DNA of 25,735 nt from Polaromonas sp. GTDB lineage: Bacteria; Pseudomonadota; Gammaproteobacteria; Burkholderiales; Burkholderiaceae_C. Shown one piece after another: positions 3,195 to 24,657 of this stretch. The position numbers and the translations under genes are program-made. The DNA is taken from NCBI GenBank assembly GCA_031415895.1, contig JANOSN010000552.1:1-25735 (forward strand). Direction: 5' to 3'. The notes beneath the pieces were generated by a model that saw nothing but the letters and a program-made list of their open reading frames with translations, was not told where the DNA came from and did no database searches. The stretch's first letter is position 1; each line of letters starts with the position of its first letter.

Positions 3195-3237
3195 AATATA
3201 GAAGTTTCAGCTCTGATTGTCTGTGCGCTAGCGCACT
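3195..3237 (-). promoter_or_regulatory. Palindromic site 1 (core 3222-3237; minus strand AGTGCG-CTAG-CGCACA) plus -10-like TATATT (3200-3195), facing the HlyD/ABC operon
   Basis: On the minus strand the core is followed by GACA, then TATATT 21 nt after the core. Start codon at 3164. Confidence 0.75.
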
Positions 3238-3436
3238 TTATGAAAAAAACGTGTTTTATATATTTTCCAATACAAAATACAACGATAGTCCATGTATTCA
3301 TTAACTATTTAGCTATTAATATTATAGCAATTAAGATTTCATAATAGAGCACACAGCTCTACTGATTGCCTACATAAGCGCATCCAGCTTCGTCATGCCA
3401 GTGCCTTATGGTTCTACAAAGTTTTGCTCGTCGCTA

Positions 3437-3479
3437 TGTGCGGCAACGCACAGAAATTAGTCCGTCAACGGTGCACAGT
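3437..3479 (+). promoter_or_regulatory. Palindromic site 2 (TGTGCG-GCAA-CGCACA, 3437-3452) plus -10-like CACAGT (3474-3479), upstream of the BON gene
   Basis: Perfect 6-bp arms; hexamer 21 nt after the core; ATG at 3511. Confidence 0.75.
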
Positions 3480-3510
3480 TCAGTTCCCTCAATCCAACTG
3501 AAAGAAACCT

Positions 3511-4164
3511 ATGAAAACTGATTCGCAACTTCAAAAAGATGTAATGGCTGAACTGAAATGGGAGCCTGCAGTGCATGCCGAACAAATTGGCGTAGAAGTC
3601 AAAGATGGCATTGTGACGCTAGCTGGTCACGTAGACAGCTTCCCTGCAAAATGGAACGCAGAGCGTGCTGCACTGCGCGTTGCAGGTGTCAAAGCTCTAG
3701 CGGTAGAAATTGATGTGAAACTAGCAGGTTCAAACCAACGTACTGATGCAGACGTGGCACGTACCGTTGAGAATGTACTACTGTGGACGACATATCTGCC
3801 AAAAGATTCTGTCAAAGTGATGGTTGAAGGCGGCTGGGTCACACTGTCAGGAGAAGTGCAATGGGCGTTTCAACGTGCAACGGCTGCAACAGCGGTGCGT
3901 TACCTGAGTGGCGTTAAGGGTGTGAACGACCAGATCACCATCAAACCAGGCGTTACAGCCAGCGTTGTTAAAAACGATATTGAAGCGGCCTTAAAACGAC
4001 GCGCTACCAGCGAGGCAAACGGCATCAAAGTAGCTGTCAGTGGCTCTCAAGTAACGCTTTCAGGAAAGGTTCCAACCTGGGCTGAACGCGATGCCGCTGG
4101 AAGCGCTGCATGGGCCTCGCCAGGGGTTAGTAATGTGGTCGACAACATCGCTATTTCATACTAA
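3511..4164 (+). CDS. BON domain-containing protein (OsmY-like, three BON domains, no signal peptide)
   Basis: 217 aa. Repeated BON units (D..I...V...L......I.V.V.DG.VTL.G.V) and AWASPGVSNVVDNI at the C-terminus. Confidence 0.92.
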   Translation: MKTDSQLQKDVMAELKWEPAVHAEQIGVEVKDGIVTLAGHVDSFPAKWNAERAALRVAGVKALAVEIDVKLAGSNQRTDADVARTVENVLLWTTYLPKDSVKVMVEGGWVTLSGEVQWAFQRATAATAVRYLSGVKGVNDQITIKPGVTASVVKNDIEAALKRRATSEANGIKVAVSGSQVTLSGKVPTWAERDAAGSAAWASPGVSNVVDNIAISY

Positions 4165-4436
4165 ACCTGTTTTAGTTTAGGTCAATAACTATGCATGCCA
4201 AGCGTGCCAATACGGTCATGCTTGGTTTTTCCTCAGCAGTTGTAATTGAAACTCAATTTTTAGGACACACCATGGACAATAACAATTTGTCAGATTATCT
4301 TTTTAAAACGCACAATGAAGCTGAAAACGCCGTAGTTTTTTACATAAAACAAGGTTCACAGAAAAGGCATGAAGCTAGCTGATACGGCTTAAATTTAACC
4401 AATGTATGCGCCTTTCATACACGCCAATTGCAATAA

Positions 4437-5843
4437 ATGCTAATCAACACTATTATTAATTTAACGATAGCGCTGGCTATGTGCGGCTGGTTGTATGGTC
4501 TGCAACGGCGTCATGCATCGTTTAGCGTACAAGTATTTGCCGGCTTGGGTCTAGGTATTGCTCTGGGTGCGGCAATGCATTGGGCCTACGGTGTCGATTC
4601 ACAAATTATTTCTAGCACCAATGCGTATTTAGATATCGTGGCTACGGGCTATGTAAAGCTTTTGCAGATGATCGTCATGCCACTGATCATGGTGTCTATC
4701 GTGGCTGCAATCGTTCAAATGAAAGATACAGCCTCAATAGGGAAAATTAGTGTGCTGATCATCGGCATGTTGATGTTGACTACCATGGTAGCCGCTGGTA
4801 TAGGTATTTTGATGGCTAAGTTATATGGCCTGACTGCTGTTGGCTTAACGGCCAGCGCTGCCGACGTGGCACATGGCGCGGTGTTGCAAGGCTCACAAGC
4901 GGCCACTAAGGCAATAACTTTACCCAGTCTGATTTTAAGCTTCATTCCATCTAATCCTTTTTTAGATATGACAGGTGCGCGAAAGACATCTGCTATTGCA
5001 GTTGTTATTTTTTCAGTCTTTATTGGCCTTGCGGCCACTGGCATTGCCCTGAACAAACCAGTATTGTTTGCATGGTTTGAAAATTTCGTCGCCGTTGCAC
5101 AAGCCATCATCATGCGAATAGTAAAAATGGTTTTGCGCCTTACCCCATATGGCGTGTTTGCACTGATGGCACAAGTAGTAGCTGATACAAGCTACAACGA
5201 CATTTTGAAGCTTATAAGTTTTGTGGCGGCGTCCTATAGCGCCTTGCTTTTGATGTTCGCAATTCACCTAGTAATGATTGCTGCGGTAGGCTTAAATCCT
5301 ATTCAATATGTTAAGAAAATTCTTCCTGTGCTGGTTTTTGCGTTCACTTCGCGCTCGAGTGCGGGTGCAATCCCGATGAATATTCAAACTCAAACCCAAA
5401 CACTTGGTACGCCTGCTGGTATTGCTAATTTTTCTGCGTCGTTTGGCGCAAGTATGGGACAGAATGGGTGCGCAGGAATTTACCCGGCCATGTTAGCGGT
5501 AATGATTGCGCCTACAGTTGGCGTTGATCCATTTACCTTCAGCTTCATTGCCACATTGATTGTGATCGTGACAGTGGGTTCCATCGGCGTTGCTGGTGTA
5601 GGCGGTGGTGCCACCTTTGCAGCGTTGATCGTGCTGTCTGCTATGAACCTACCGGTCGCTCTGGCTGGCTTATTGATATCTATTGAGCCTTTGATCGATA
5701 TGGGCCGTACCGCATTGAACGTCAGTGGTGCTACTACAGTTGGTACCGTGACCAGCCGTATTTTGGGTCAAACCGATATGACAATTTTTAAAAGCGATGC
5801 CCGTCTTGATCTGGATGCCACCGATGCGATCCATCCAGCTTGA
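4437..5843 (+). CDS. tcyP: L-cystine transporter, dicarboxylate/amino acid:cation symporter family
   Basis: 468 aa. AFTSRSSAGAIP motif and the TcyP-type GQNGCAGIYPAML and ISIEPLIDMGRTALNV motifs. Confidence 0.88.
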   Translation: MLINTIINLTIALAMCGWLYGLQRRHASFSVQVFAGLGLGIALGAAMHWAYGVDSQIISSTNAYLDIVATGYVKLLQMIVMPLIMVSIVAAIVQMKDTASIGKISVLIIGMLMLTTMVAAGIGILMAKLYGLTAVGLTASAADVAHGAVLQGSQAATKAITLPSLILSFIPSNPFLDMTGARKTSAIAVVIFSVFIGLAATGIALNKPVLFAWFENFVAVAQAIIMRIVKMVLRLTPYGVFALMAQVVADTSYNDILKLISFVAASYSALLLMFAIHLVMIAAVGLNPIQYVKKILPVLVFAFTSRSSAGAIPMNIQTQTQTLGTPAGIANFSASFGASMGQNGCAGIYPAMLAVMIAPTVGVDPFTFSFIATLIVIVTVGSIGVAGVGGGATFAALIVLSAMNLPVALAGLLISIEPLIDMGRTALNVSGATTVGTVTSRILGQTDMTIFKSDARLDLDATDAIHPA

Positions 5844-5891
5844 AGTCATTAGCACAACTGGCCTCACAGTTGAGTAACGAACGACACCACT

Positions 5892-6113
5892 ATGACCCAG
5901 ACCATGCACAGCGCCAGAATCACAGGATTGATTTCGTACTCAAAGGGTGGCGGGAAAACTGGCACTATTCCAATAGGCCCTTGCCTAATTGAACAATTAG
6001 ATGATCGTTTTTTTGATGTTGTCTGGGGCGCACGTGGGCAAAGCTGCGCTGCGCTTCGGGCTGAAGACGTCAAAGTTGCGGTGGACTTGGGCAATTTGAT
6101 ATTCTTGGATTAA
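5892..6113 (+). CDS. Small hypothetical protein (start 5892 or 5904)
   Basis: 73-aa ORF that fills the tcyP-OYE gap on the same strand with protein-like composition. No function recognised. Confidence 0.55.
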   Translation: MTQTMHSARITGLISYSKGGGKTGTIPIGPCLIEQLDDRFFDVVWGARGQSCAALRAEDVKVAVDLGNLIFLD

Positions 6114-6175
6114 CTTTGAGGTAACTTCTTTCAACTTTGTTTTCATTACGCACCTTGACCAACCATACCGCTACT

Positions 6176-7300
6176 ATGTCTACATCCTTTGACACCATAC
6201 TTTTCTCTCCCTTAACAACCGGTGATTTGCAGCTTGCCAACCGGATCGTCATGGCACCACTCACACGCAACCGTGCGCCTGATGCCATACCTACTCCGCT
6301 CATGGCCGAGTACTACTCCCAACGCGCCAGTGCTGGTTTGCTGGTCACCGAGGCTACTGCCGTAACCCAGCAGGGCCAAGGCTATTCAGACGTGCCGGGC
6401 CTCTATGGCACTGAGCAATTGGATGGCTGGAAACATGTGGTCGATTCAGTTCATGCGGCCGACGGGAAGATCGTAGTGCAACTCTGGCATGTGGGGCGCG
6501 TGTCACATACTGAGTTGCAGCCTGGGGGCGCAAGACCGGTGGCACCTTCAGCGATCACTGCAAAGACTAAAACAGTGCTGATCAAGGACGGTGTGCCTAC
6601 ATTTGTACCCACATCTGCACCCCGAGCTTTGCTTGAGGAAGAACTGCCCGACATCGTCCACACCTTCCAGGCTGCAGCGCGCAACGCGGTGGAAACTGTA
6701 GGATTTGACGGGGTTGAAATCCACGGCGCCAATGGCTATCTGTTAGATCAGTTTCTCAAAGACGGCTCTAACCATCGCACCGATGATTATGGTGGCAACA
6801 TCGAAAATCGCGCTCGCCTTCTGCTGGAAGTGGTGCGCGCTGTCACCAGCGCGGTGGGCGGCGGACGAACTGGCATCCGGTTGTCGCCGGTCACTACGGC
6901 TAACGATGCATATGACAGCACACCACAACCGCTTTTCGAATATGTCTTGGCACAATTGGCCTCTCTGCATCTAGCTTACGTTCACATCATTGAGGGCGCC
7001 ACTGGAGGTCCGCGTGTGCTGCCTGATCGCCCATTTGATTACATTGCCCTCAAGGCGGCCTATACACGCGCAGGTGGTAAAGGTGCGTGGATGGTCAACA
7101 ACGGGCTTGACAAAGCGCTGGCCATAGAGGCCCTGAACAACGGTGCAGACCTAGTGGCTTTTGGTCGCCCCTACATTGCCAACCCCGACCTGGTGGCACG
7201 CCTGCGCCAAAGCGGCCCGTACAACGAAGGTGATCGCAGCACTTATTACGGTGGTGGTGCATTGGGCTATACAGATTACAAGACGTTAGTGAAACAATAG
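6176..7300 (+). CDS. nemA: Alkene reductase / N-ethylmaleimide reductase (old yellow enzyme family)
   Basis: NRIVMAPLTRNRA, QLWHVGRVSH, HGANGYLLDQFL, RTDDYGG..ENRARL and FGRPYIANPDLV motifs. ATG 6176 preferred over 6137. Confidence 0.9.
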   Translation: MSTSFDTILFSPLTTGDLQLANRIVMAPLTRNRAPDAIPTPLMAEYYSQRASAGLLVTEATAVTQQGQGYSDVPGLYGTEQLDGWKHVVDSVHAADGKIVVQLWHVGRVSHTELQPGGARPVAPSAITAKTKTVLIKDGVPTFVPTSAPRALLEEELPDIVHTFQAAARNAVETVGFDGVEIHGANGYLLDQFLKDGSNHRTDDYGGNIENRARLLLEVVRAVTSAVGGGRTGIRLSPVTTANDAYDSTPQPLFEYVLAQLASLHLAYVHIIEGATGGPRVLPDRPFDYIALKAAYTRAGGKGAWMVNNGLDKALAIEALNNGADLVAFGRPYIANPDLVARLRQSGPYNEGDRSTYYGGGALGYTDYKTLVKQ

Positions 7301-7669
7301 CTCTTCAGACCAACTTCATCAAGGTTAGAGCGAATGTGTACTAACACATAGGCTGCACGGCAATTGTTTAACTACTGTTGCTCGTACAGGGCCAGTCTTT
7401 AACGATGGGGGCAGTAGGCCCCAAGACCAGCATGACTGGGGTATAGCTTTCGCAGTTCATTTGATTGTTAGCAACCTGGTATTTGGTTTAACCATTTAAA
7501 CCTACCTGATGGGCAATGTGTCCGCTACCGGTGCGTTTGCCCAAGCAGGTCTGTCGCTGTCCTCGCGCTGGCAATTGTGGTTTTCACTGCCGAACCGCTT
7601 GTTAGACGGCTGGCGCTGCCCTACTTAAAACTGTGGGGCTTGCGCGAGTTATACAAAGAATCCTCGTTT

Positions 7670-7712
7670 TGTGCGCTGCCGCACGGACGGCCTAAATCAA
7701 AGGGTGAATGAT
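7670..7712 (+). promoter_or_regulatory. Palindromic site 3 (TGTGCG-CTGC-CGCACG, 7670-7685) plus -10-like AATGAT (7707-7712), upstream of the 7857-12937 operon
   Basis: Core followed by GAC; hexamer 21 nt after the core. The leader to ATG 7857 is longer (about 140 nt) than at the other sites. Confidence 0.62.
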
Positions 7713-7856
7713 GAAGGCTGATATCGAACTGCAATCTTTGTTCGCCATCAATTAGGGGCCAGACCAGTTTGCACAAATAGACGTGGCGGCGCAGGTGGTT
7801 CTTAAATTTGCTGTTGTTTGGGTAGTCTTACAACTTGATAAAAGGAGAATCTGGAA

Positions 7857-9152
7857 ATGAATGATACTCAACTTGTATTGGCTGTTGCCAGCACTTTGAA
7901 GCGGGGCTTTTGGATTGCGGCATTCTTTATGTTGTCCATGTTACTGCCAGTGCACGCGCAGGAGCCTGTTGTCAAGCCGGTGCCCACAGAGGATACGCGT
8001 GAGGGCAGTACATTACCTGCAAGCCGTAATATCTACAGCGTTAGTGGCAATGTACGCTCAACAGGACCAGTCAATGGCGATCTCTATGCTGCTGGTGGCC
8101 GCGTCATAGTCGAGCACCCGGTAGCGGGCGACGCAACTTTGGCTGGCGGCTCTGTGATCGTGCGTGCTGCTGTAGGCGACGACTTGCGTGCAGCTGGTGG
8201 AGATATCAACATCGACAGCACAGTAGGTGGTGAGCTTTACGCATCGGGTGGCAACATCATACTGAGCAAAACCGCTGTGGTTACGGGTGCCGTCACGATG
8301 TATGCGGGCAACGTCACCATCGAAGGCAAAGTTAACGGGCCACTCAAGGTCTATGCCAAAAAAATTGCTCTTAACGGTGAAATTACCCGCGATGTAGAGC
8401 TCAATGCCGAACAAATTGAGCTCGGTCCGCAGGCGAAGCTGGGTGGAGCATTGCGCTATTCAAGCAATGCGCAGTTTAAAACAGCACAGGGTGTGATTAT
8501 TGGTGGTGCCGTTACTCGCGCTGACGCCATGAATGGCCGACCCGACACCCACCATGATCGGGAATGGCATGGGCAAATGATGGGTAGTGGTTCAGGCTGG
8601 GCCGGCACGATTGCCGGCACTGTAGCAAGCTTTGTTGCGCTGCTGGCTGCATCGGCGTTGTTTTTGCTTGTGTTCACCGGATTCTCGCAGCGCACCGCAA
8701 CCAGGATGCTAGCTAAGCCGTGGTCTGCGCTTGCTGCAGGCGTGGTGGTTCTGTTGGGCGCCCCCATACTAGCTATGCTGCTGCTCATCACGTTGATCGG
8801 CATTCCGTTAGGTATGGTGCTGATGATGCTGTTCCCCCTGATACTGTTGATGGGCTGGGTAGTAGGTGTTTTCGGAGTTGCCCAGCGTGTGCAGAGAGTC
8901 ATTCAAAAAGAGGTGTCTAGCGGATTGAGTGCCGCCACGATCGGTTTCTTTGCACTCACGTTGCTGTTGGTATTGCTGCTTGGCAGCTTGCCGTTTATTG
9001 GGTTTTTAATCCTTGTCGCGATCTTGCTGTTGGGCACAGGTGCCTGCGCGCTTGAGCTGTACTGCCAGGTTCGGCCTAGTCACAACTCAACCGCGCCTAG
9101 TGCACCGGGTTCTGGATCCTTACCTCACACCACTGTAGTGGACGCATCATGA
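7857..9152 (+). CDS. Membrane protein with N-terminal beta-helix (bactofilin/polymer-forming cytoskeletal-like) repeats and a C-terminal multi-TM domain
   Basis: RBS AAGGAG at about 7842. Signal-like segment ending VHA-QE, about 17-aa repeats (GDLYAAGGRVIVEHPVA / GDATLAGGSVIVRAAVG / DDLRAAGGDINIDSTVG), then about 5 hydrophobic helices. Confidence 0.8.
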   Translation: MNDTQLVLAVASTLKRGFWIAAFFMLSMLLPVHAQEPVVKPVPTEDTREGSTLPASRNIYSVSGNVRSTGPVNGDLYAAGGRVIVEHPVAGDATLAGGSVIVRAAVGDDLRAAGGDINIDSTVGGELYASGGNIILSKTAVVTGAVTMYAGNVTIEGKVNGPLKVYAKKIALNGEITRDVELNAEQIELGPQAKLGGALRYSSNAQFKTAQGVIIGGAVTRADAMNGRPDTHHDREWHGQMMGSGSGWAGTIAGTVASFVALLAASALFLLVFTGFSQRTATRMLAKPWSALAAGVVVLLGAPILAMLLLITLIGIPLGMVLMMLFPLILLMGWVVGVFGVAQRVQRVIQKEVSSGLSAATIGFFALTLLLVLLLGSLPFIGFLILVAILLLGTGACALELYCQVRPSHNSTAPSAPGSGSLPHTTVVDAS

Positions 9153-10027
9153 CTTGGCTTAAATGGTCAGGTGTTGCAATCGCCTTGCTTTTGGTCGTCG
9201 CAATAGCTGCCGTGGCTTACGGCTCATGGCACTGGGAGCGCGACACACAGGCCATCTTGGCGCGACTGGAGGCGGCTCGTGTCACCAGCGCAACTTCAAC
9301 CTTGCCTGCACACTACGATGCACGCGAAATCGAAGGCCTACCGGCACCTGTGCAGCGCTACTTTCGCGCAGTGTTGAAGGAAGGCCAACCCATCATTGTC
9401 GCAGCGTCAATCGAACAAGTTGGAACATTCAATATGAGCGAAACAGCCCAACAGTGGAAACCATTCACCGCCAAGCAGCGGGTGATCACACAGCGACCTG
9501 GCTTTGACTGGGATGCGCGCATTATGATGTTTCCAGGTGTGGCTGCGCATATTCATGATGCCTACATTGCTGGCCAAGGAATGCTGCATGGTGCAGTATT
9601 TGGTTTGATCCCTGTGGTCAACATGCCCGACAGCCCTGAGCTACAGCAAGGTGAATTCATGCGCTACTTTATGGAGGCGCTGTGGTACCCCACTGCACTG
9701 CTTCCCAGCCAGGGCGTGCGATGGGAGGCTGTGGATGACCGGTCAGCCCGCGCCAGTTTTACAGATGGTGCGATCACACTGACATTGACTTTCCATTTTC
9801 AAGGAGATGGGTTGATTGGGTTTGCACGGGCCGAATCGCGTGACCGCATGGTGAACGGTGTGCCAAGCGGTGTACCGTGGCAAGGACGGTTTTGGAATTA
9901 CGCGATGCGTGAAGGCATACAGGTGCCGCTGGAGGGCGAGGTAGCGTGGGTAATGCCCGACGGCATCAAGCCCTACTACCGGGGCAAGGTCACATCGCTC
10001 TCATTTGAATATGTAACCCTCCTATAA
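9149..10027 (+). CDS. Conserved hypothetical protein, DUF6544/DUF6920-like, N-terminal membrane anchor
   Basis: 292 aa, ATGA-coupled to the upstream gene. LPAPVQRYFR, RPGFDWDARI, E..RY..EA.WYPTALLP and VPLEGEVAW motifs. Family assignment from memory. Confidence 0.75.
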   Translation: MTWLKWSGVAIALLLVVAIAAVAYGSWHWERDTQAILARLEAARVTSATSTLPAHYDAREIEGLPAPVQRYFRAVLKEGQPIIVAASIEQVGTFNMSETAQQWKPFTAKQRVITQRPGFDWDARIMMFPGVAAHIHDAYIAGQGMLHGAVFGLIPVVNMPDSPELQQGEFMRYFMEALWYPTALLPSQGVRWEAVDDRSARASFTDGAITLTLTFHFQGDGLIGFARAESRDRMVNGVPSGVPWQGRFWNYAMREGIQVPLEGEVAWVMPDGIKPYYRGKVTSLSFEYVTLL

Positions 10028-10030
10028 ACC

Positions 10031-12937
10031 ATGGCCCACTCCAACACTCAAGATGCCGCGTATAGCAAGGAGCCCGTTGATATTGCAAAGGCATTGAATG
10101 CGGACCCTGAGAAAGGACTATCGACTCAAGAGGCGGCAACACGCCTTGCCAAGGACGGGCCAAACGAGCTTAAATCGGCCCCGCCAACGCCAGCTTGGCG
10201 GCGCGTACTGGCTCAGTTTCAAGACCCACTTATTTATCTGTTGCTAGCAGCCATTGCTGTGGCGTTGGTAGCTTGGGGTGTGGAGGGCTGGGTTGGCTGG
10301 CCGGTTGACGCTATCGTCATTGGCATCGTTGTCATTCTGAACGGTGCATTAGGTTATTTGGAAGAGGCCAAGGCACGAGATGCCGTGGCGGCGTTGGCGC
10401 GGATGACCGAAGCCACGTCTAGCGTAATGCGCGACGGACATCTGTCGAGGGTACCTAGCGCGCAACTGGTTACAGGCGACTTACTAGTACTGGCGGAGGG
10501 CGACAGTGTAGGGGCGGACGCTAGGTTGATTCAAGCCGCATCGCTTCGTGTTCAGGAAGCGTCACTCACGGGCGAAAGCGAGGCAGTACTCAAAGATATT
10601 GCCACACTACCAAATGCAGCGGCACTTGGTGACCAGCTAAACATGGTTTTCAAGGGTACGGCGGTTGCGCAGGGAACTGGCCGCGCACTAGTTACTGCAA
10701 GTGGTATGACAACCCAGATGGGGGCTATTGCCAGTCTATTGACGGCAACCCCCGAGGAGACGACTCCGCTGGAAAAGGAGATCAAACGCATCGGACGTTT
10801 TTTAGGTGTGGCGGTGGTCATAATTTCTATGGTGGTAGTGGGCACCATTTTGATGGTGTCAGACATTCAAAGCACGGGCGATGTGGTGACAGTACTGCTT
10901 TTTGGTGTGGCACTAGCCGTTGCAGCAGTGCCCGAGGGGTTGCCCGCCATTTTATCGGTGGTGCTAGCTTTGGGCGTGCGGCGAATGGCTAAACGAAAAG
11001 CGATTGTCAAAAAACTATCCTCAGTAGAGGCACTGGGCGCTACCACCGTCATTGCCACTGACAAAACCGGCACCTTGACCCGCGCTGAAATGACGATTGA
11101 ACAAATCATTACCGCATCGGGCAGCACGCTCGTTACAGGTGTGGGGTATGCACCCAACGGCCAGGTGGAAGTGGGTGGTGCAAAAATTACTGACCAATCA
11201 CTGCTTGCGGAGCAAACTATACTGCTCATGTACGGCTGCCTGGCAGGAAACGCCACACTAAGCCAAGCCAAATACGAAACTTCAGTTCAAACTACAGATA
11301 AAGCGACAGACGATAAGAAAAGCGGTGAGTGGCAAATTCAGGGTGACCCTACCGAGGCAGCTTTTTTAGTAGCGGAACGCAAACTTGGCGTGACTGACTT
11401 GCGTACCAAACGGTTCACCCGCATCAGTGAAATCGCATTCACCTCGGCACGCAAGATGATGTCAACGCTGCAGACCGATCATGACCAAGCAGACGCAACT
11501 ATCCTGATCACCAAAGGTGCACCCGACGTACTGCTAGAGCATTGCAGTCATATTCAAGTGGGTACGCAGACAGTTGCAATGAATGACGCGCATCGCAGTC
11601 AGATATTGGCCCAAGTAGATGCATTGTCTGATGCGGCGCTACGCACACTGGCGGTTGCGTTTAGACCGTTGGCCCCAAGTGAAACCGCAAAGGCAGACCA
11701 GGCACCAAGCCACGATCTGGAGCGAAACTTGATTTGGGTCGGCACCGTGGGCATGATGGACCCGCCGCGCGAAGAAGCCGCTGTTGCTATCAGCGAGGCG
11801 CGACGGGCTGGTATTCGAGTGATCATGATCACAGGCGACCACCCGCGCACAGCGGCGCGCATAGCAACAGATTTGGGCATCAGCGAAGCTGGCCAGACTG
11901 TATTGAGCGGGCTAGAGTTGGACGTGCTGGCTGACTCTGAATTTGCGCGGGCCGTGCGAAAAACATCGGTCTATGCGCGGGTATCGCCTAGCAACAAACT
12001 GCGCATTGTGGCGACACTTCAAGCGGACGGGCAAGTCGTGGCCATGACAGGAGACGGTGTCAACGATGCACCCGCCCTGAAGGCCGCTAATATTGGCATT
12101 GCTATGGGCGTCACTGGTACCGAGGTTACCAAGGAAGCAGCCAAAATGATATTGGCCGATGACAACTTTGCCACCATCGTTGATGCGGTGCGCGAGGGGC
12201 GCAGCCTTTTTGACAATATCCGTAAGTTTCTGCGCTACCTGTTGTCATCGAACATGGGGGAGGTGTTGACTGTGTTTTTAGGTGTGGTGGGCGCAGGCTT
12301 AATTGGACTGAACAATTCATCTGACGGGGCGGTAAGTGCCTTGGTGTTGCCACTGTTGGCCACTCAAATACTGTGGCTAAATCTGATCACCGATTCTTGG
12401 CCCGCACTGGCGATGGGAATTGATCCGCCCACGGATGATGTGATGGCGCGCAAACCGCGACATATGAGCGAGCGCGTGATAGGCCTGCACATGTGGGCGG
12501 GCGTGTTTGAGATTGGGCTTGTAATTGCCATCGTAGCGTTGCTAACGATGGACATGTACTTGCCTGGCGGATTAATCGAGCAGGTGGGTGGAACAGGTGA
12601 CATTGCCAATGCACGCACAGCGGGGTTCACCGTGCTGGTGATGGCGCATTTGTTTCAATGCTTTAACGCGCGGTCAGAGACCACCAGCGCGTTCAAAAAT
12701 TTGTTCGTCAACCCGTGGCTATGGGGAGCAGTGGCGCTGTCTGCAGTGCTTCAAGTCGCAGTCGTTAACGTGCCATTCCTCAACCTTGCGTTTGGCACCG
12801 TGCCGCTAGCGATGGACCAATGGCTAACTTGCTTGGCTATGGCAAGTTTGGTGCTGGTCTATAGCGAAATGCGCAAGCTAGTGACGCGTATGGTCTTGGG
12901 TGCGCTGGCGCACAGACAGAGCACGACAGCAGCTTAA
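10031..12937 (+). CDS. Cation-translocating P-type ATPase, P2A (SERCA/CtpF-like)
   Basis: 968 aa. TGES, PEGL, DKTGTLT, KGAPD, DPPR, MITGD and TGDGVNDAPALK motifs; SSNMGE (M5) and NLITD (M6). Confidence 0.96.
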   Translation: MAHSNTQDAAYSKEPVDIAKALNADPEKGLSTQEAATRLAKDGPNELKSAPPTPAWRRVLAQFQDPLIYLLLAAIAVALVAWGVEGWVGWPVDAIVIGIVVILNGALGYLEEAKARDAVAALARMTEATSSVMRDGHLSRVPSAQLVTGDLLVLAEGDSVGADARLIQAASLRVQEASLTGESEAVLKDIATLPNAAALGDQLNMVFKGTAVAQGTGRALVTASGMTTQMGAIASLLTATPEETTPLEKEIKRIGRFLGVAVVIISMVVVGTILMVSDIQSTGDVVTVLLFGVALAVAAVPEGLPAILSVVLALGVRRMAKRKAIVKKLSSVEALGATTVIATDKTGTLTRAEMTIEQIITASGSTLVTGVGYAPNGQVEVGGAKITDQSLLAEQTILLMYGCLAGNATLSQAKYETSVQTTDKATDDKKSGEWQIQGDPTEAAFLVAERKLGVTDLRTKRFTRISEIAFTSARKMMSTLQTDHDQADATILITKGAPDVLLEHCSHIQVGTQTVAMNDAHRSQILAQVDALSDAALRTLAVAFRPLAPSETAKADQAPSHDLERNLIWVGTVGMMDPPREEAAVAISEARRAGIRVIMITGDHPRTAARIATDLGISEAGQTVLSGLELDVLADSEFARAVRKTSVYARVSPSNKLRIVATLQADGQVVAMTGDGVNDAPALKAANIGIAMGVTGTEVTKEAAKMILADDNFATIVDAVREGRSLFDNIRKFLRYLLSSNMGEVLTVFLGVVGAGLIGLNNSSDGAVSALVLPLLATQILWLNLITDSWPALAMGIDPPTDDVMARKPRHMSERVIGLHMWAGVFEIGLVIAIVALLTMDMYLPGGLIEQVGGTGDIANARTAGFTVLVMAHLFQCFNARSETTSAFKNLFVNPWLWGAVALSAVLQVAVVNVPFLNLAFGTVPLAMDQWLTCLAMASLVLVYSEMRKLVTRMVLGALAHRQSTTAA
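12740..12937 (+). repeat. Direct repeat A, copy 1 (last 66 codons of the ATPase)
   Basis: Hand alignment to 13943-14141 gives 146/180 identical nt over the first 60 codons, plus a 1-nt indel. Confidence 0.92.
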
Positions 12938-12941
12938 TCAT
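12899..12941 (+). promoter_or_regulatory. Palindromic site 4 (GGTGCG-CTGG-CGCACA, 12899-12914) inside the ATPase 3' end, plus -10-like AATCAT (12936-12941)
   Basis: Core followed by GACA; hexamer 21 nt after the core. RBS AGGAG and GTG start at 12979. Confidence 0.68.
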
Positions 12942-12978: not shown

Positions 12979-13941
12979 GTGAAGAAGATTCTAGTTTTTG
13001 GCGCTGGAGTTCTTGGCAGTTTATATGCAGCGCGACTCAAACAATCAGGACAAGACGTTACTATCCTAGCCCGAAACACGCGACTAAAGGAAATCAAAGA
13101 ACACGGAATCGTCTTAGAGCACGCCCTCACCGGGAAAAGAGAGATTGTGACACTACCTGTCGTTGAACACTTGGATAAAAACGACACCTACGACCTGATC
13201 ACGGTCTTAGTCAGAAAGAACCAGGTGGCTTCGGTACTGCCCATATTGGCAGCACACCAAGCCACACCAAATATTCTGTTCATGGTGAATAACCCGTCTG
13301 GCTATGACGACTGGATCAATGCAGTCGGATCTAAACGACTAGTGCTTGGTTTCGCAGGGGCCGGCGGTTCGCGGGTCGCCAGCGTGGTGCGCTATGTGTT
13401 GGTTTCCCGCTTTCTCCAGCCAACGACATTTGGAGAACTCGATGGCTCTAGCTCTGAGCGAATCAAGAAAATCATGCGTATTTTTCGTGACGCAGGATTT
13501 CCCACAGCGCTTACATCCAACATGGACGCATGGCAGAAATCCCATGCCGCGTGAATCAGTCCACTCGCGAATGCTTTGTACATGGTTAACTGCGACAACC
13601 GTGCCCTGGCAAGCAGTCCTCGCGCACTACGGCTGACGGTACGTGCTGTACGTGAGGGTTTTAGCGTACTGCGCGCGCTGGGGATATCTGTCACCCCAAC
13701 CAAGCTTCGAGTGTGGGAATGGATTCCAGAGAGTCTATTGGTTCGCTGTCTCATGCTGTGGGCTGGCACGAATCATTTCAGCACAGTTGCCGTAGAGCAC
13801 ACTGCGGCCGCAACCGACGAGATGCGGCAGATTGCAGATGAGTTTCAGATTCTCGCCATGTCGGCGGCTATGGTGACACCGGCAATTAATGAGCTGAGGT
13901 CATTCATTGCCCTACCGAATATAAATTCTCTCAAAACCTGA
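12979..13941 (+). pseudogene. Ketopantoate reductase (PanE/ApbA) family protein, interrupted by one in-frame TGA at 13552-13554
   Basis: Rossmann motif ILVFGAGVLGS, then ITVLVRKNQV, LFMVNN and FGELDG. ORFs 12979-13554 and 13576-13941 share one frame (...WQKSHAA*ISPLANALYM...), giving 320 codons in total. Confidence 0.85.
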
Positions 13942-13942: not shown

Positions 13943-14141
13943 TCTGCGTTGCTGCAAGTCGCCATGGTGGACGTGCCATTCCTCGACTTTACGTTTGGCA
14001 CAGTGCCGCTAGCGATGGGCCAATTGGATTACCCGTCTGGCTATGGCTAGACTGGTGCTGGTGTACAGCGAAGTGCGCAACCTAGTGACACGCTCAGTCT
14101 TTAGTGCGCTGGCGCACAGACAAATAGAGACTACCACGTGA
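13943..14141 (+). repeat. Direct repeat A, copy 2: orphan, frameshifted 3' tail of a P-type ATPase allele with its own stop codon
   Basis: Reads SALLQVAMVDVPFLDFTFGTVPLAMGQ(+1)WITRLAMARLVLVYSEVRNLVTRSVFSALAHRQIETTT*, versus ATPase SAVLQVAVVNVPFLNLAFGTVPLAMDQWLTCLAMASLVLVYSEMRKLVTRMVLGALAHRQSTTAA*. Confidence 0.92.
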
Positions 14142-14145
14142 ACAT
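14103..14145 (+). promoter_or_regulatory. Palindromic site 5 (AGTGCG-CTGG-CGCACA, 14103-14118) plus -10-like GAACAT (14140-14145), upstream of cytochrome c
   Basis: Lies in the orphan ATPase tail. Core followed by GACA; hexamer 21 nt after the core; ATG at 14182. Confidence 0.68.
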
Positions 14146-14181: not shown

Positions 14182-14547
14182 ATGAAAAACTCCCCGAACA
14201 GATTCACAGTTTTCATGGCGCTAGCGATTCTCAGCGATTTTTCTCATTCCCAAGTGCTACCCAGTCAGACACGCGGCAGTTTGCTGTATGAAACGCATTG
14301 CATCACTTGCCATACAACGCAAATACACTGGCGCAATGACAGACTAGCCTATGACTGGGACAGTTTGAAAGTGCAAGTACGCCGCTGGCAGGGCAACGCA
14401 GGCTTACAGTGGAGCGAGTCTGACATCACAGAGGTCTCGCGGTACTTAAATGAAACTATTTACCGTCACCCAACTCCAGCTGATCGCGTGAGGCTGGTTT
14501 CAAGGTGCACGCCCACGTCAATCCAGTCAACCAAATTAGATCAATGA
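14182..14547 (+). CDS. Small monoheme c-type cytochrome
   Basis: Signal-like N-terminus, RGSLLYETHCITCH (CxxCH heme motif) and V.RYLNETIY. Confidence 0.88.
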   Translation: MKNSPNRFTVFMALAILSDFSHSQVLPSQTRGSLLYETHCITCHTTQIHWRNDRLAYDWDSLKVQVRRWQGNAGLQWSESDITEVSRYLNETIYRHPTPADRVRLVSRCTPTSIQSTKLDQ

Positions 14548-16749: not shown

Positions 16750-16806
16750 ATCATTCTTCGATACGCGGACTCGAAAAAAGTCTAGTCCACTCAAAGGACG
16801 GTTCAT

Positions 16807-17025: not shown

Positions 17026-17084
17026 ACCATGCTGGCCGCTTTGTTGCTGCAAAAACATGTCAAGTCCAACCTGAGCCAAGCACC

Positions 17085-17888
17085 ATGACGTTCTCATTAC
17101 CACGCCTCGTGATCTTTTTCGCGTTAACTTTCACCTGGTCCTGGACGTGCTGGCTGCTAACGCCTATCGTCAAGGCTGATTCAAGTTACGTATCCAGCGC
17201 GTTATTCTTCTTGGGCGGATTTGGACCTAGCCTGGCTGCAGTCGCCGTGGTCGCAATGGCAGGCGGGCGCGCTGGTTTGCGCGCCTGGCTTGCGCGGTGT
17301 CTCCGATGGCGCGGCAACTGGGGCTGGATGATGCTTGCTTTTTTATCGCCCCTCGCTGTTTTAACGTTTGCAGCCGCTATGCATATGACGTTGGGCGGCA
17401 GCGTGCGGCCATCGCCTGCGATGGGTCATGTCGCGTTGTTCATCGCTAATTTTGGTTTGGTGTTTCTGGTAGGCGGGCCGTTGGGTGAGGAGTTTGGCTG
17501 GCGTGGTTATGCGCTGCCTGCGATGCAAGAGCGGCTTGGTTGGCGCAGCGCCAGTCTTGCTTTGGGCGCCATCTGGGGGGTGTGGCATTTGCCGCTGTTT
17601 TTTGTGGCGGGTTCATCTCAAAACCAAGGCTCTGTCCTCGCGTTCTTTGTATTGATCGTGGCTACTTCGGTTATCTATGCTTGGCTTTTTAATCGGGCTA
17701 AGGGCAGCGTGCTGCCCGCATTGGTGCTGCATACGGCATCCAACGCATGGCCGTTTCTTGTTCCCGTACTGCCATCAGATACCGACCAGCGGGCTTACCT
17801 ATTGGTCATAGGGTTGGTGGTGACGGCTTGCGCCTGGCTGCTTTTGCGGCGTGATGGCACTCACACACCTCAAGGCCTGCCATCATGA
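17085..17888 (+). CDS. CPBP (CAAX/Abi) family intramembrane metalloprotease
   Basis: GEEFGWRGYA, WGVWHLP and LHTASN motifs. ATG 17085 (MTFSLPRL) preferred over the track start at 16917. Confidence 0.9.
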   Translation: MTFSLPRLVIFFALTFTWSWTCWLLTPIVKADSSYVSSALFFLGGFGPSLAAVAVVAMAGGRAGLRAWLARCLRWRGNWGWMMLAFLSPLAVLTFAAAMHMTLGGSVRPSPAMGHVALFIANFGLVFLVGGPLGEEFGWRGYALPAMQERLGWRSASLALGAIWGVWHLPLFFVAGSSQNQGSVLAFFVLIVATSVIYAWLFNRAKGSVLPALVLHTASNAWPFLVPVLPSDTDQRAYLLVIGLVVTACAWLLLRRDGTHTPQGLPS

Positions 17889-20181: not shown

Positions 20182-20986
20182 TCCAGTGGGTCCATCACAC
20201 CGTCTCCCAGCTTTCTTCCTGCTGGTCTTCGCGTTCTCCGTTCCGTTTTGGTTGATAGGCGGCGCGACCGATCTACAGTTGATGCCGGGGCTTTCGGTGA
20301 GTGCGCTCATGGGCTTTTGTCCCATGAGCGCGGCGTTGATACTGGTTTACCGGGATGGAGGAGTCGCAGGCGCGCGGGCGCTGCTCGTGCGATCTTTTGA
20401 TTTCAAGCGCATCCAAGACAAGCGCTGGCTGGTTCCAGTTCTGCTGTTGATGCCTGCCGTCAGCTTGGTGGTTTTTGGCCTGCTGCGCTGGATGAATATG
20501 CCGCTACCCGCAGTGCAATTTCATCTATTTCCTGCGCTGCTGATTTTTATCGCCTTCTTTGTGGAGGGATTGGGCGAAGAGTTGGGCTGGTCTGGCTATG
20601 CACTTGAGCCGATGCAAGCGCGCTGGGGCGCATTGGGTGCAGCTCTGCTGCTGGGGCTGGCGGGTATCGCTTGGCATCTCACGCCGCTGCTACTGATGGG
20701 CCGCTCACCGCTATGGATTGCCTGGTGGGGCTTGTATGCGCTGACATTTCGGATTTTTATCGTCTGGCTGTACAACAACAATGGCAGAAGCGTGTTTGCG
20801 GTGGCGCTGTTTCACGCTACGTTGAACATGGCTTACGTGCTGTTTCCAGTTTACGGATCATATTTTGATATGCGTCTTGCGGGACTCGTGATGGCAGGTG
20901 CAGCCTTGCAGGTCATCGTGTTTTGGGGGCCCAAAACCCTCACCAGATATACGGGAAAAGGCACTGTGCACCCAGCACAGGAATGA
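20165..20986 (+). CDS. Second CPBP family intramembrane metalloprotease (start uncertain)
   Basis: GEELGWSGYA, GIAWHLTP and FHATLN motifs; multi-TM. Confidence 0.87.
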   Translation: MRANLDPVGPSHRLPAFFLLVFAFSVPFWLIGGATDLQLMPGLSVSALMGFCPMSAALILVYRDGGVAGARALLVRSFDFKRIQDKRWLVPVLLLMPAVSLVVFGLLRWMNMPLPAVQFHLFPALLIFIAFFVEGLGEELGWSGYALEPMQARWGALGAALLLGLAGIAWHLTPLLLMGRSPLWIAWWGLYALTFRIFIVWLYNNNGRSVFAVALFHATLNMAYVLFPVYGSYFDMRLAGLVMAGAALQVIVFWGPKTLTRYTGKGTVHPAQE

Positions 20987-21049
20987 AAAACACTATGGTT
21001 TTAATAGCATAATAGTTAATAGATACCTGGACTACCGGCATATTTCGCC

Positions 21050-21068
21050 ACTACTGTCCAGTAAATTT
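21050..21068. repeat. IS terminal inverted repeat at the transposase 3' end
   Basis: ACTACTGTCCAGTAAATTT versus the reverse complement of 22247-22265, ACTACTGTCCGGTTAATTT. Confidence 0.85.
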
Positions 21069-22124
21069 TAAAGTAACTCCATTTGAGAGTCCAAGGCAGG
21101 GTCAGAGTCTGTAGATTGAGCGATTTTAATCATCTCCACAATGGAGATTTTTTCGAACATATTGACCTCGACGAGGTGCAGCAATAGCTGCAAACTCAAG
21201 TTCAGTTTGAGCGTTTTGTGGGCAATCAGTACAGTCAAATAAACGCATACGGCAATCCATATTTGTGATTTAACCGCATTAATCGAATTACCAAAGAAGT
21301 GCTTGATGCTCAAATTTTGCTTGAGCCATTTAAAGAACAGCTCAATGCGCCAGCGCTGCTTATAAATCTGCGCAATCGTCAAAGCGGGTAAATCCCATCG
21401 ATTGGTCAGCGCGCAATCCCGTGCTTTCATCAACTTCGTATTCGGCCAGTACCCGGTGGCGCAAATTGGCTCTGGCGCGTACCACAAAGTTGATTTTTCT
21501 GTGTCCTAGTTCCCGCAGACGCGCAAAGTCAATATAGCCTCTATCGAGCACCACCGTGGCATGCGCTGGCAGGGTGATTTCCCTTAGCAAATTGAGGTCG
21601 TTGACCCGGCCCTCTGTAATGCTGAGGAACACCGGAATGCAGCCGCGCAGATCAATCACAGTATGCGCTTTAACGGCCGCCTTGGTCTGCGTGAAATCGG
21701 CCCATGGAAACAGCGTGAGACACAGATCGATGACGGTGGAATCCATGGCATACAAAGGCTCTTGTAAGCCTAGCGGGTGTGCATCATGCTGGTGTAGCTC
21801 CAAAGCCTGGGCAATCAAACGCTGCCCCAGGGATTCAAACAGTTGCCAATCGCGCCTCTCGCTGGCGTCCGCCAGCGTAGAGCGCGATATGCGGTGGCGT
21901 ATGCCCAGGTGATAGAGCCGACTGCGGTGCGAGTTTAAACAGGCCACCAGATCACGCAAGCCCTCCCTGCGGGTGATCTGTGCATAAGCGAGGCAGACGA
22001 AATGGCTCCATGCAGGCAGTGTCTTACTCCAGCGATTGGCCCCCGATTTATCCACCAAATATTCAAAGTGTTTGTAGGGCACAAAATCGAGTAATTGTGC
22101 GAAGACCGTGCGACCTTTGAACAT
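21068..22124 (-). pseudogene. IS4-family DDE transposase (DUF4372-type N-terminus), internally deleted and frameshifted
   Basis: MFKGRTVFAQLL, AMDSTVIDL, VLDRGYID in one frame; Y..RWRIELFFKWLKQNLSIK in another. The frames join at 21402-21409. Confidence 0.9.
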
Positions 22125-22246
22125 AACGGCAACCACCTTCAAAGTGGCTACGTTAATCGCTCGGCGCGAGGGTGCGTTTGAAGTCGTCCGAATCGCAAAA
22201 CGCTTGCAAACCTAGGCTGGATGCGGGTTCGGGCGGTTTAGGCGGG

Positions 22247-22265
22247 AAATTAACCGGACAGTAGT
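22247..22265. repeat. IS terminal inverted repeat at the transposase 5' end
   Basis: AAATTAACCGGACAGTAGT, partner of 21050-21068. Confidence 0.85.
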
Positions 22266-22328
22266 AATATTTTATGCATAAATTGTGCTGCGCATTGCAA
22301 TACGAATTTTTTCAGATTCACCTAATTA

Positions 22329-22348
22329 GGTTCGGCAACGCACAGACA
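22329..22348 (+). promoter_or_regulatory. Degenerate palindromic site 6 (GGTTCG-GCAA-CGCACA-GACA), upstream of the 22395 gene
   Basis: Right arm and GACA are perfect, the left arm has mismatches, and there is no N-A-N3-T hexamer at +21. Confidence 0.5.
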
Positions 22349-22394
22349 CCCATACCAAAGATGGTGTCTACTAATTTATTTGAAAGTAACCATC

Positions 22395-22721
22395 ATGCCT
22401 TCAACCGAGTGGAGCGCAAAGCGCAAGCGCCAATACCAGCACATCAAGGACAGCGTGTTGGCACGTGGCCAGAGTGAATCTTTGGCCGAAGAGATCGCTG
22501 CGCGCACCGTGAACAAGGAGCGCGCGCAACACGGTGAATCTGTAGAGGCCAGTGCATCGTCACTCAACGACATGCCAGCAGGTCGGCGTGGTGGCCTCAG
22601 ATCGCACCAGGGGGCGGGGGGGCGCACCGTAGCGCAGCTTCGCAACGAGGCCAGCCAGCGCAATGTAGCGGGGCGCTCAAGCATGAACAAGGCACAGCTG
22701 GAACAGGCGCTTGCGCATTGA
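22395..22721 (+). CDS. Small basic conserved protein (often annotated 'plasmid stabilization protein'); ChaB-like N-terminus, Rho-N-like C-terminus
   Basis: RQYQHIKDS...EEIAARTVNKERA and RTVAQLRNEASQRNVAGRSSMNKAQLEQAL. ATG 22395. Confidence 0.78.
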   Translation: MPSTEWSAKRKRQYQHIKDSVLARGQSESLAEEIAARTVNKERAQHGESVEASASSLNDMPAGRRGGLRSHQGAGGRTVAQLRNEASQRNVAGRSSMNKAQLEQALAH

Positions 22722-22731
22722 CCCATTCACT

Positions 22732-23421
22732 ATGAGACATATTGAAAGACACCGCACCTCACGTATCGGTTGGCTGCGCGCCGCGGTGTTGGGTGCGAAT
22801 GACGGCATTGTCTCCACCTCTAGCCTGATAATAGGCGTTGCGGCTGCAAGCATAAGCCAAAACAGCTTGCTACTGACGGGTGTAGCGGGGCTCGTGGCGG
22901 GCGCCATGTCGATGGCGGCCGGAGAATATGTGTCAGTACATTCACAGGCCGATACCGAAAAAGCAGACTTGGCCCGCGAACGCGCTGAACTTATGAAAGA
23001 CCCAGTCGCTGAGCACAAAGAACTTGCAGCAGTGTATGTCAAGCGCGGGTTGGATGCCACGCTGGCAAGCCAAGTGTCTGACCAGTTAATGAAGCACGAT
23101 GCATTGGGCACGCATGCGCGGGAGGAGTTGGGTATTTCTGAACTTCAAAGTGCAAAACCGATTCAGGCAGCGCTCTCGTCAGCGGCCAGTTTTGCCGTTG
23201 GGGCAGCGCTTCCGTTGGGTGTCACAGCGCTAGCTGGTGGGCCATACCTAATGCCGTGGATAGCAGCCACGTCTTTGGCCTTTTTGGCTATGTTAGGAGT
23301 CTTGGCTGCCAAAGCAGGGGGTGCCAACCTTTGGACAAGTGCGTGGCGCGTCACATTCTGGGGTGCATTAGCCATGCTCATCACGGCAGGTGTGGGTTCG
23401 TTGTTTGGGGCTGTGGTGTGA
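22732..23421 (+). CDS. VIT1/CCC1 family transporter (Fe/Mn)
   Basis: LRAAVLGANDGIVS, GAMSMAAGEYVSV and HAREELG motifs. Confidence 0.93.
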   Translation: MRHIERHRTSRIGWLRAAVLGANDGIVSTSSLIIGVAAASISQNSLLLTGVAGLVAGAMSMAAGEYVSVHSQADTEKADLARERAELMKDPVAEHKELAAVYVKRGLDATLASQVSDQLMKHDALGTHAREELGISELQSAKPIQAALSSAASFAVGAALPLGVTALAGGPYLMPWIAATSLAFLAMLGVLAAKAGGANLWTSAWRVTFWGALAMLITAGVGSLFGAVV

Positions 23422-24614
23422 AAACGCGGCGAACACCCGATGCTGTGGCCACTAAATTTGGTGTACATCCCGATGTAGTGAAACTCGGATTGGTCAGCTT
23501 CTTGACCGATCTCAGCTCGGAGATGATCTTCTCGGTGTTCGCGATATTCTTCACTACCATTGCAGGTGCTTCGGTAGCTTTACTGGGCCTAGTAGAAGGC
23601 TTGGCCGATTTGTCCGCCTCGTCACTCAACTACTATGCAGGCTGGCTGTCAGACCGCACGGGGAAACGCAAAATATTCGCACTTGCAGGTTACGGTTTTT
23701 CTACCCTCGCCAAGGTCATCTTGTTAGTCAGCAGTTCAATTACAGGCTTGATGGTATTTCGCGTCATTGAAAGGCTGGGTAAGGGTTTCAGAGGTCCCCC
23801 GCGTGATGCTTGGCTTTCTGCCGTGGCTGATAGTAAAAGCCGAGGCTATGCATTCGGTGTACATAAGGCACTGGATAAATCGGGTGCTGTGCTCGGGCCA
23901 CTTGTGGCTTACGGACTACTGTCATGGCTGGGAGACGGCGCGTCAACCTACCACACTTTGTTCTGGATCGCATTAGTGCCCGCCATACTCGGGGTTGTAG
24001 CGCTGAGCTTTATCAAAGACCAGCCTGCACCAGAGCGTTCACGCGAGAGCATGCTGCAGACGTGGCAAAGTCTGAGCCCTGCATTCAAACGCTACCTAAT
24101 AAGCGCAGGCATTTTTTCGCTAGCCTACTTCAGTTTTGGATTTCTAATGTTGCGGGCTAATAGCGTGGGCTTCTCGGTTAAGGGCACTGTACTGCTGTAT
24201 GCAATGTTTAACATTGCTTGCGTCATCGCTGCGCCGCTGATTGGCAAGCTCAGCGACCGCGTAGGCAGGCCAAGAATGATCATGCTGGGCTATATCACTT
24301 ATCTGTTAATGAGCTTAGGTTTTGTGTTTGCAAGCACGCAGTGGGAGATTGTGGTGCTGTTCATTTTGTACGGGATTTTTTATGCTGTAGATGAAGCTCA
24401 AAACAAAGCTTTTATCGTCGATTTGGAGGCCGAGCGGCGTGCATCGGCTATTGGTCTGTACAACCTTATAACTGGTGCCATTTATTTGCCTGCATCATTG
24501 ATCGCAGGCGCATTGTGGATATTCAATCCTGCCAGCGCCTTTTTGCTATCAGCGGCTCTTGCCTTGGCAGCACTGGTAGTTTTCACACTAACTCGCCCCG
24601 ACCATCCGCACTAA
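23418..24614 (+). CDS. MFS transporter
   Basis: GTG start overlaps the VIT stop. VSFLTDLSSEM, GWLSDRTGKRK, RLGKGFRGPPRDA and GKLSDRVGR motifs; about 12 TMs. Confidence 0.9.
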   Translation: MKTRRTPDAVATKFGVHPDVVKLGLVSFLTDLSSEMIFSVFAIFFTTIAGASVALLGLVEGLADLSASSLNYYAGWLSDRTGKRKIFALAGYGFSTLAKVILLVSSSITGLMVFRVIERLGKGFRGPPRDAWLSAVADSKSRGYAFGVHKALDKSGAVLGPLVAYGLLSWLGDGASTYHTLFWIALVPAILGVVALSFIKDQPAPERSRESMLQTWQSLSPAFKRYLISAGIFSLAYFSFGFLMLRANSVGFSVKGTVLLYAMFNIACVIAAPLIGKLSDRVGRPRMIMLGYITYLLMSLGFVFASTQWEIVVLFILYGIFYAVDEAQNKAFIVDLEAERRASAIGLYNLITGAIYLPASLIAGALWIFNPASAFLLSAALALAALVVFTLTRPDHPH

Positions 24615-24657
24615 GGTGCGATAGCGCACTGAACTTTTACACCGGAGGCTCTAATCT
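24615..24657 (+). promoter_or_regulatory. Palindromic site 7 (GGTGCG-ATAG-CGCACT, 24615-24630) plus -10 TAATCT (24652-24657), upstream of the Acg-like gene
   Basis: Begins right after the MFS stop; TANNNT hexamer 21 nt after the core; AAGGA RBS and ATG at 24678. Confidence 0.72.

Follow-up and report, generated by a model that had tools for sequence, protein, structure and literature searches.

A recurrent palindrome in a Polaromonas stress-gene island is a probable operator of a Crp/Fnr-family clade

In Escherichia coli, CRP reads the box TGTGA-N6-TCACA, which overlaps the -35 element at class II promoters, through a recognition helix (RETVGR) in which R180 and R185 contact the two G's of TGTGA and E181 the C opposite the second of these (PMC10187061). 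In the CRP/FNR family at large, Arg180 correlates with G where FNR-type boxes have T, and Glu181 goes with an A as fifth base of TGTGA (PMC1274295). Described relatives of this box include that of NnrR in alphaproteobacterial denitrifiers (ctTTGcg-N4-cgCAAag; PMC1274295), that of Clr in Sinorhizobium meliloti (HGTYHC-N4-GRWACA; PMC10187061) and the FNR/Anr motif TGA-N6-TCA of the low-oxygen lxa locus in Burkholderia cenocepacia (PMC3721108). Here we describe a palindrome, GTGCG-N4-CGCAC, that occurs at seven sites, one with a variant arm, in a 25,735-nucleotide stretch of a Polaromonas sp. genome (contig JANOSN010000552.1, hereafter the window). These seven palindromes are very probably binding sites of a Crp/Fnr-type regulator encoded on other contigs, the best candidate being a clade that we call RRE after its recognition helix.

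The box has the half-site spacing, the T-G-T-G and the overlap with the -35 position of class II CRP sites. Unlike them, it carries a strongly kept C-G at half-site bases five and six, which leaves a spacer of four bases. An earlier note made from the sequence had called it neither a CRP nor an FNR box, and this distinction stands: the fifth base is C and the sixth is G in all window sites, and the FNR half-site differs at three of five bases. We rejected the CRP box itself on these grounds, as base five is C rather than A and base six is constrained to G at all seven sites. CgrA of R. centenum binds the classical CRP box. The NnrR box is also a 14-bp palindrome with CG beside a four-base spacer and lies a single base per half-site away, with T at the first base where this box has G. 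G is the expected base here because the RRE helix keeps Arg180. The likeness seen to NnrR is one of boxes, and the targets are of stress or dormancy type rather than nir, nor or nos genes. The Clr box shares a conserved sixth base and a four-base spacer, but that base is C in Clr and G here, and the Clr helix reads RPKVNR where the clade has RREGVTE.

The lxa locus resembles the window as an island with many Crp/Fnr-type boxes in its intergenic gaps, and also in gene content, with a cation ATPase here and phosphoketolase and alcohol dehydrogenase in relatives. It differs in that the box here has C for A (TGC-N6-GCA) and the clade regulator has no FNR-like N-terminal Cys cluster; while lxa is a low-oxygen locus, the likeness seen here is one of genes and boxes. 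A paper on the CRP/FNR meta-regulon does not mention the box. Literature searches with box spellings and for Crp/Fnr stress regulons returned no publication on the box or the clade, and the spellings retrieved only an unrelated LysR paper. The phrase "hidden regulon" used in the earlier note is slightly too strong, given the nearness of the published NnrR box.

Palindrome distribution and fixed promoter spacing

The window contains six exact GTGCG-N4-CGCAC cores (Table 1), compared with 0.08 expected from shuffled sequence, and none of 100 shuffles reached six. The seventh copy reads GTTCG-N4-CGCAC, with the variant in its distal arm, and the pattern GTKCG-N4-CGMAC recovers precisely the seven sites against 0.10 expected. 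All seven cores listed in the earlier note are present, its coordinates being those of 16-bp cores that begin one base before the 14-bp cores used here. For its 16-bp form, TGTGCG...CGCACA, the inner core holds and the outer bases are only partly kept (T at 3/7 distal and A at 5/7 proximal positions). The window gene map confirms that every core precedes a start codon and points at it. Six of the seven lie outside long reading frames, the exception being site 4, within the final 38 nt of a P-type ATPase gene; for comparison, an open frame of 150 aa or more covers 87% of random genome positions.

The assembly is a metagenome-assembled genome of 3.5 Mb in 933 contigs and 88% complete. A scan of it, addressing the alternative of a dispersed motif raised in the earlier note, found 18 exact cores, six of them in the window. 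Seven of the 12 outside lie within long reading frames and look like chance occurrences. Cores with two mismatches, sought in the window as weaker hidden sites, were not enriched (15 found against 22.6 expected). Nor were FNR-box near-matches in the window (3 against 0.9 expected), which gives no sign of FNR co-regulation; two one-mismatch FNR-box look-alikes, at 7461-7474 and 7738-7751, lie either side of site 3 in the gap from 7300 to 7857 and are not significant.

At six sites a hexamer of the form NANNNT starts 23 nt after the 14-bp core, and a hexamer of the type C plus AGACA stands 17 nt upstream of it. Both spacings agree with the earlier note, as does its count of six in seven, since site 6 reads GTCTAC at the hexamer position. 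We pooled 66 sites from this genome and its relatives, oriented by the AGA flank and with position +4 not used in selection. In this set A occupies +24 in 45/66 and T occupies +28 in 49/66, and C is found at +4 in 51/66 as against 13/66 for the mirror base on the distal side. A set limited to relatives, with near-duplicates removed, comprised 47 non-redundant oriented sites. There the start of NANNNT lies at +23 in 29 sites and at +24 in another 11 (40/47), against about 2 at other offsets, and the core-to-hexamer spacing is therefore fixed in independent sites. On the distal side the hexamer is also found at +23 in 12/47, as would be the case wherever a fully symmetric box (GTCTGTGCG...CGCACAGAC) serves divergent promoters, and at these the flanks are kept on both sides of the palindrome.

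The palindrome centre lies 29.5 nt before the -10-like hexamer at 6/7 window sites and, counting starts at +23 or +24, at 40/47 of the relatives' sites. If the hexamer is taken as the -10 element (-12 to -7), the centre therefore falls at -41.5. The hexamer 17 nt further upstream reads C-A-G-A-C-N, in which the TTG of TTGACA is missing and only GAC is left, so that the weak or missing -35 element of class II promoters is found here. The one-sided flank is well explained as a -35 remnant, as the earlier note had proposed, rather than as a symmetric protein contact: C at +4 is strongly one-sided, and both flanks are kept where the promoters diverge. At the promoters of the BON-domain gene in two relatives (G002 and G007), the box lies 73 nt before the ATG, and AGAC and CACAGT/CAAAGT remain in register around a diverged spacer. 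The proximal arm there reads CGAAC, from which half-site base three tolerates G or T.

Beyond the core, the sites share only the promoter-side AGAC-type flank, apart from sites 4 and 5, which belong to a duplication. A dispersed repeat of the repetitive extragenic palindromic or miniature inverted-repeat transposable element type was rejected on account of the 18 exact cores in 3.5 Mb, the flanks unrelated save for AGAC and the fixed -10 spacing. An RNA hairpin was rejected as well: the stem, of just 5 bp, is located upstream of the -10, and the asymmetric variants at the BON orthologues (GTGCG...CGAAC) break pairing. Between sites 1 and 2 there is also a dispersed repeat, 45 bp long and AT-rich, that contains a GCTAT...ATAGC dyad. 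It has at least 22 copies in this genome and 26 matches in relative G010, one copy sits just upstream of a box on contig C918, and it does not contain the Crp-type box.

A Crp/Fnr clade linked to the box

The window holds no Crp/Fnr gene, and the genome as a whole has 13 Crp-type helix-turn-helix matches. Contig C91 carries two tandem Crp/Fnr genes, CrpA and then CrpB, followed directly by a box at C91:1248. CrpA is split across the ends of contigs C21 and C91, with about eight codons missing in between, and its promoter on C21 has a symmetric variant of the box, GTTCG-ATAG-CGAAC, with TATACT starting at +22. A third, partial gene, CrpC, lies on C407. Of 40 loci fetched with CrpB, which come from genera such as Polaromonas, Rhodoferax, Nitrosomonas, Rheinheimera and Halopseudomonas, most carry the CrpA-CrpB pair in tandem. 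In a tree built from 119 family members of these loci two clades stand apart, one with the helix GVRREG(V/I)T(E/Q), which includes CrpA and CrpC (RRE), and one with GVRRVGIT, which includes CrpB (RRV).

Domain matches and a predicted fold place the candidates in the Crp/Fnr family. CrpB and orthologues of CrpA and CrpC score 51-53 bits against PF13545 (HTH_Crp_2) and 26.6-29.6 bits against PF00027 (cNMP_binding), for which the cut-off is 27.5; CrpB and the CrpA orthologue of G003 pass, and the CrpC orthologue of G007 falls just under. NCBIfam has no model for CrpA or CrpB. The predicted model of the G003 CrpA orthologue (predicted local distance difference test score 83.5) shows a beta-barrel and a long helix between the domains (residues 125-150). 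Foldseek matches it to FNR, M. tuberculosis CRP, NtcA, GlxR and Clr with template-modelling scores of 0.6-0.75 and 13-20% identity. The candidate thus appears to share the fold and two-domain build of E. coli CRP, together with a recognition helix that begins Arg-Glu (PMC10187061). It differs in its low identity to solved CRPs, in the replacement of the Arg185 equivalent (REGVTE) and in an extra C-terminal helix with an invariant CECY. Five residues are invariant in 18 aligned RRE members (numbering of L054:6697-7428): C147, H150 and H151 in the motif VCNRHH, where the long helix ends, and C224 and C226 in CECY. These motifs suggest a Cys3-His metal or redox site, and an N-terminal Cys cluster of the [4Fe-4S] type is absent from all 18.

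The box tends to accompany this clade across genomes. Among 18 same-genus genomes, all that have a 17-mer form of the box at two or more distinct sites also have the regulator clade. We then sampled 301 Burkholderiales genomes, 109 of which match an RRE-clade profile; the relatives are not independent, and counts are given without a test statistic. The 18-mer GTGCG-N4-CGCACAGAC is present in 54/301, comprising 49/109 genomes with the clade and 5/192 without, and a reversed control pattern matches in 10/301. Many of the 18-mer matches directly adjoin the regulator gene. The 643 kb that surround the tandem regulator genes contain 22 exact cores, where two control palindromes give 0 and 3. Counting the 300 nt upstream of each gene, 23/55 RRE genes and 7/56 RRV genes have a box, compared with 0/111 for a control pattern, and ahead of some regulator genes the flanks are ATA/ATAC in place of AGAC. 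The proposal in the earlier note that the regulator is encoded outside the window agrees with the clade on C21/C91 and C407, which co-occurs with the box and adjoins it in relatives.

Within the family, the RRE clade is the best candidate binder, because relatives G007 and G012 have only the CrpC type and yet carry 4 and 9 box matches, and because a CrpB-type (RRV) paralog was not found in G004, G007 or G012 in a search of the same-genus genomes. The clade retains the Arg-Glu of RETVGR and has its third contact replaced, so that a box which keeps GTG and is changed at the next two bases would fit this helix.

Class II activation and its alternatives

The observation of the earlier note is therefore real, and its interpretation is supported. 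We consider it likely that the palindrome is the operator of a dimeric RRE-clade regulator that activates the seven window units in class II fashion. From sequence we infer binding, activation, the identity of the binding paralog and the nature of the signal as follows. The consensus operator (tc)TGTGCG-N4-CGCACA(gac) would be read by the helix GVRREG(V/I)T(E/Q) of CrpA (C21/C91) or CrpC (C407), the two RRE members that the genome encodes outside the window. The dimer would sit about 41.5 bp upstream of the transcription start, over the -35 place where only GAC persists, and would recruit RNA polymerase in the manner of CRP and FNR at class II promoters. Units switched on together would comprise an HlyD-MacB-ABC exporter, a BON protein, a bactofilin-like protein with a DUF6920 protein and a P-type ATPase, an ApbA-like reductase, a string of flavodoxin-fold, CAAX and hydrolase genes, a small open reading frame (ORF) with VIT1 and MFS genes, and an Acg-type nitroreductase. 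The regulator is likely to control its own gene too.

The same regulator could act at the same box entirely or mainly as a repressor, blocking RNA polymerase at the -35 position so that its release switches the genes on. The box overlaps that position, and boxes before the regulator's own gene, some with ATA/ATAC rather than AGAC flanks, would suit negative autoregulation. A repressor, however, needs no exact helical register, yet the -10 spacing holds within 1 nt in 40/47 sites. Promoters without the TTG of a -35 element look activator-dependent, and some palindromes serve a divergent pair of promoters, with a hexamer at the right spacing on either side; repression is an unlikely account of these features. 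It is likewise unlikely that the box is bound by CrpB or by a CrpA/CrpB heterodimer in place of RRE homodimers. Such binding would fit the tandem's occurrence in most of 40 loci across Beta- and Gammaproteobacteria, the box directly after CrpB in this genome and several relatives, and the boxes upstream of RRV genes. But G004, G007 and G012 carry 4-9 box matches without a detected CrpB-type paralog, boxes are about three times as frequent upstream of RRE genes as of RRV genes, and CrpB lacks the Glu of the Arg-Glu pair.

The palindrome might instead belong to a regulator of another family, or be a recombination or repeat element at the cassette borders of an island that grew by insertion, with incidental promoter features. 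Sites 4 and 5 do lie in duplicated ATPase tails around an inserted gene, the island holds a broken transposase gene, and a true dispersed repeat adjoins site 1. That repeat, however, does not include the box, the genome has just 18 exact cores, and beyond the core only the flank described above is shared. CRP/FNR boxes have the half-site spacing seen here, the -10 spacing is fixed, and distribution and position tie the box tightly to Crp/Fnr genes, all of which make this explanation very improbable.

Several points weigh against class II activation by the RRE clade. The figure of -41.5 depends on NANNNT being the -10 element, and site 6 is without this hexamer both here and in its G009 orthologue. 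Site 3 sits 173 nt away from its gene. The box has C at the fifth base where Glu181 predicts A, so the fit of helix to box is partial. In this genome CrpB or a CrpA/CrpB heterodimer could be the binder, and the host genome is fragmented and incomplete (933 contigs, 88%). The strict 18-mer occurs in only about half of the clade-bearing genomes, which are not independent samples.

Among the box-linked genes in relatives are those for phosphoketolase, a P-type ATPase, PRC-barrel proteins, HiPIP, beta/gamma-crystallin-like proteins, alcohol and short-chain dehydrogenases, flavodoxin-fold reductases, a Band 7 protein, MlaC/MlaE and a GGDEF protein. As a set, these genes recall islands linked to low oxygen or dormancy, of which lxa is an example. 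In this genome, heme oxygenase and bacteriophytochrome histidine kinase genes lie behind the box at C918:272, which is an extended palindrome (TGTAT-core-ATACA) followed at +23 by AATGAT, and light sensing may for this reason be part of the regulon. More speculatively, the RRE clade could be a dormancy or low-energy stress master switch in many Beta- and Gammaproteobacteria, a possibility we raise tentatively. Candidate targets observed in this genome and in relatives comprise, among others, BON and PRC-barrel proteins, P-type ATPase, Acg nitroreductase, phosphoketolase, HiPIP, quinone reductases and a bacteriophytochrome operon. The clade may sense its signal by metal binding or redox at the invariant Cys3-His site (VCNRHH plus CECY) rather than through a cyclic nucleotide. 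If so, the clade would be a functional counterpart of mycobacterial DosR or of the Anr-type lxa system, built on a different sensor.

Roughly one in three of the sampled Burkholderiales genomes (109/301) carries the clade, which also occurs in Nitrosomonas, Rheinheimera and Halopseudomonas, and the box offers a testable handle on it. With this box, the regulon of the clade could be read from sequence alone in metagenome-assembled genomes and isolates; here, in a bacterium of freshwater sediment, it links stress genes that span about 20 kb and are poorly understood. It would also extend the CRP/FNR code between recognition helix and box, with Arg-Glu kept, the third contact changed and CG beside a four-base spacer. 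Strains in culture that carry the regulators and the box include Polaromonas glacialis R3-9 (locus L032). The window sequence was found only in DNA runs of freshwater-sediment metagenomes, and for the BON gene 0 RNA runs were listed.

Features of the window and island structure

Table 1 Sites, facing genes and other features of the window, with regulator genes and boxes on other contigs
Feature	Coordinates	Strand	Description
Target unit 1	3..3164	-	HlyD-type membrane-fusion protein (1761-3164), MacB-like permease (538-1764), ABC ATPase (3-545, extends past window edge)
-10-like hexamer of site 1	3195..3200	-	TATATT, starts 23 nt after core 1
Site 1	3223..3236	-	Exact core; AGACA flank (3218-3222); faces HlyD-MacB-ABC operon; predicted start site near 3188, HlyD ATG at 3164
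Dispersed repeat	3285..3331		45-bp AT-rich repeat
Site 2	3438..3451	+	Exact core; AGAAA flank; -10-like CACAGT 3474-3479
Target unit 2	3511..4164	+	Three-BON-domain protein, OsmY-like
Site 3	7671..7684	+	Exact core; GGACG flank; -10-like AATGAT 7707-7712
Target unit 3	7857..12937	+	Bactofilin-like protein, DUF6920 protein, P-type cation ATPase
Duplicated ATPase tail	12740..14141		Copies end at 12937 and near 14140
Site 4	12900..12913	+	Exact core in last ATPase codons (ALAHRQ); AGACA flank; -10-like AATCAT 12936-12941; faces ApbA/PanE-like gene at 12979
ApbA/PanE-like gene	12979..13554, 13576..13941		Broken into two ORFs
Site 5	14104..14117	+	Exact core in duplicated ATPase tail; AGACA flank; -10-like GAACAT 14140-14145; faces 121-aa ORF at 14182, then same-strand flavodoxin-fold, DUF6064, CAAX-protease and hydrolase genes up to 20986
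121-aa ORF	14182..14547		Overlaps start of flavodoxin-fold gene (14505)
DDE transposase	21068..22142	-	DUF4372 + DDE_Tnp_1; two overlapping ORFs
Site 6	22330..22343	+	Distal-arm GTTCG; AGACA flank; GTCTAC at +23, no NANNNT; faces 108-aa ORF (ATG 22395), VIT1 and MFS genes
Site 7	24616..24629	+	Exact core; TGAAC flank; -10-like TAATCT 24652-24657; faces Acg-family nitroreductase gene (24678 to window end)
CrpA, N-terminal piece	C21:1-459	-	N-terminal 153 residues
CrpA, second piece	C91:2-256		Precedes CrpB
CrpB	C91:418-1113		Helix GVRRVGIT; tandem paralog after CrpA
CrpC	start of C407		Partial gene; RRE-type helix
C918 box and operon	C918:272-3134		Box, heme oxygenase and bacteriophytochrome histidine kinase genes (L106)

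Several of the boxes are found at the same genes in relatives. The HlyD orthologue in G007 (locus L083) likewise carries a box, a box is embedded at the end of the ATPase gene in G007 and G002, and the G009 orthologue of site 6 (L067) has an exact core followed by the same GTCTAC. Other genes of the window encode an SDF transporter, an OYE flavoenzyme, two flavodoxin-fold quinone-reductase-like proteins, CAAX proteases and hydrolases.

Two parts of the island bear marks of rearrangement. The last ~60 codons of the ATPase gene are present twice, either side of the ApbA/PanE-like gene, while in G007 and G002 a flavodoxin-fold gene directly follows the ATPase and the box lies within the ATPase tail (ALAHRQ). 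The ApbA-like gene thus has the appearance of an insertion that brought about a second copy of the promoter. The DDE transposase gene, split and lying just upstream of site 6, is probably a decayed insertion sequence element. The 121-aa ORF behind site 5 has a signal-peptide-like start and matches no family; in G007 the distance from the box to the flavodoxin-fold gene is only about 100 nt.

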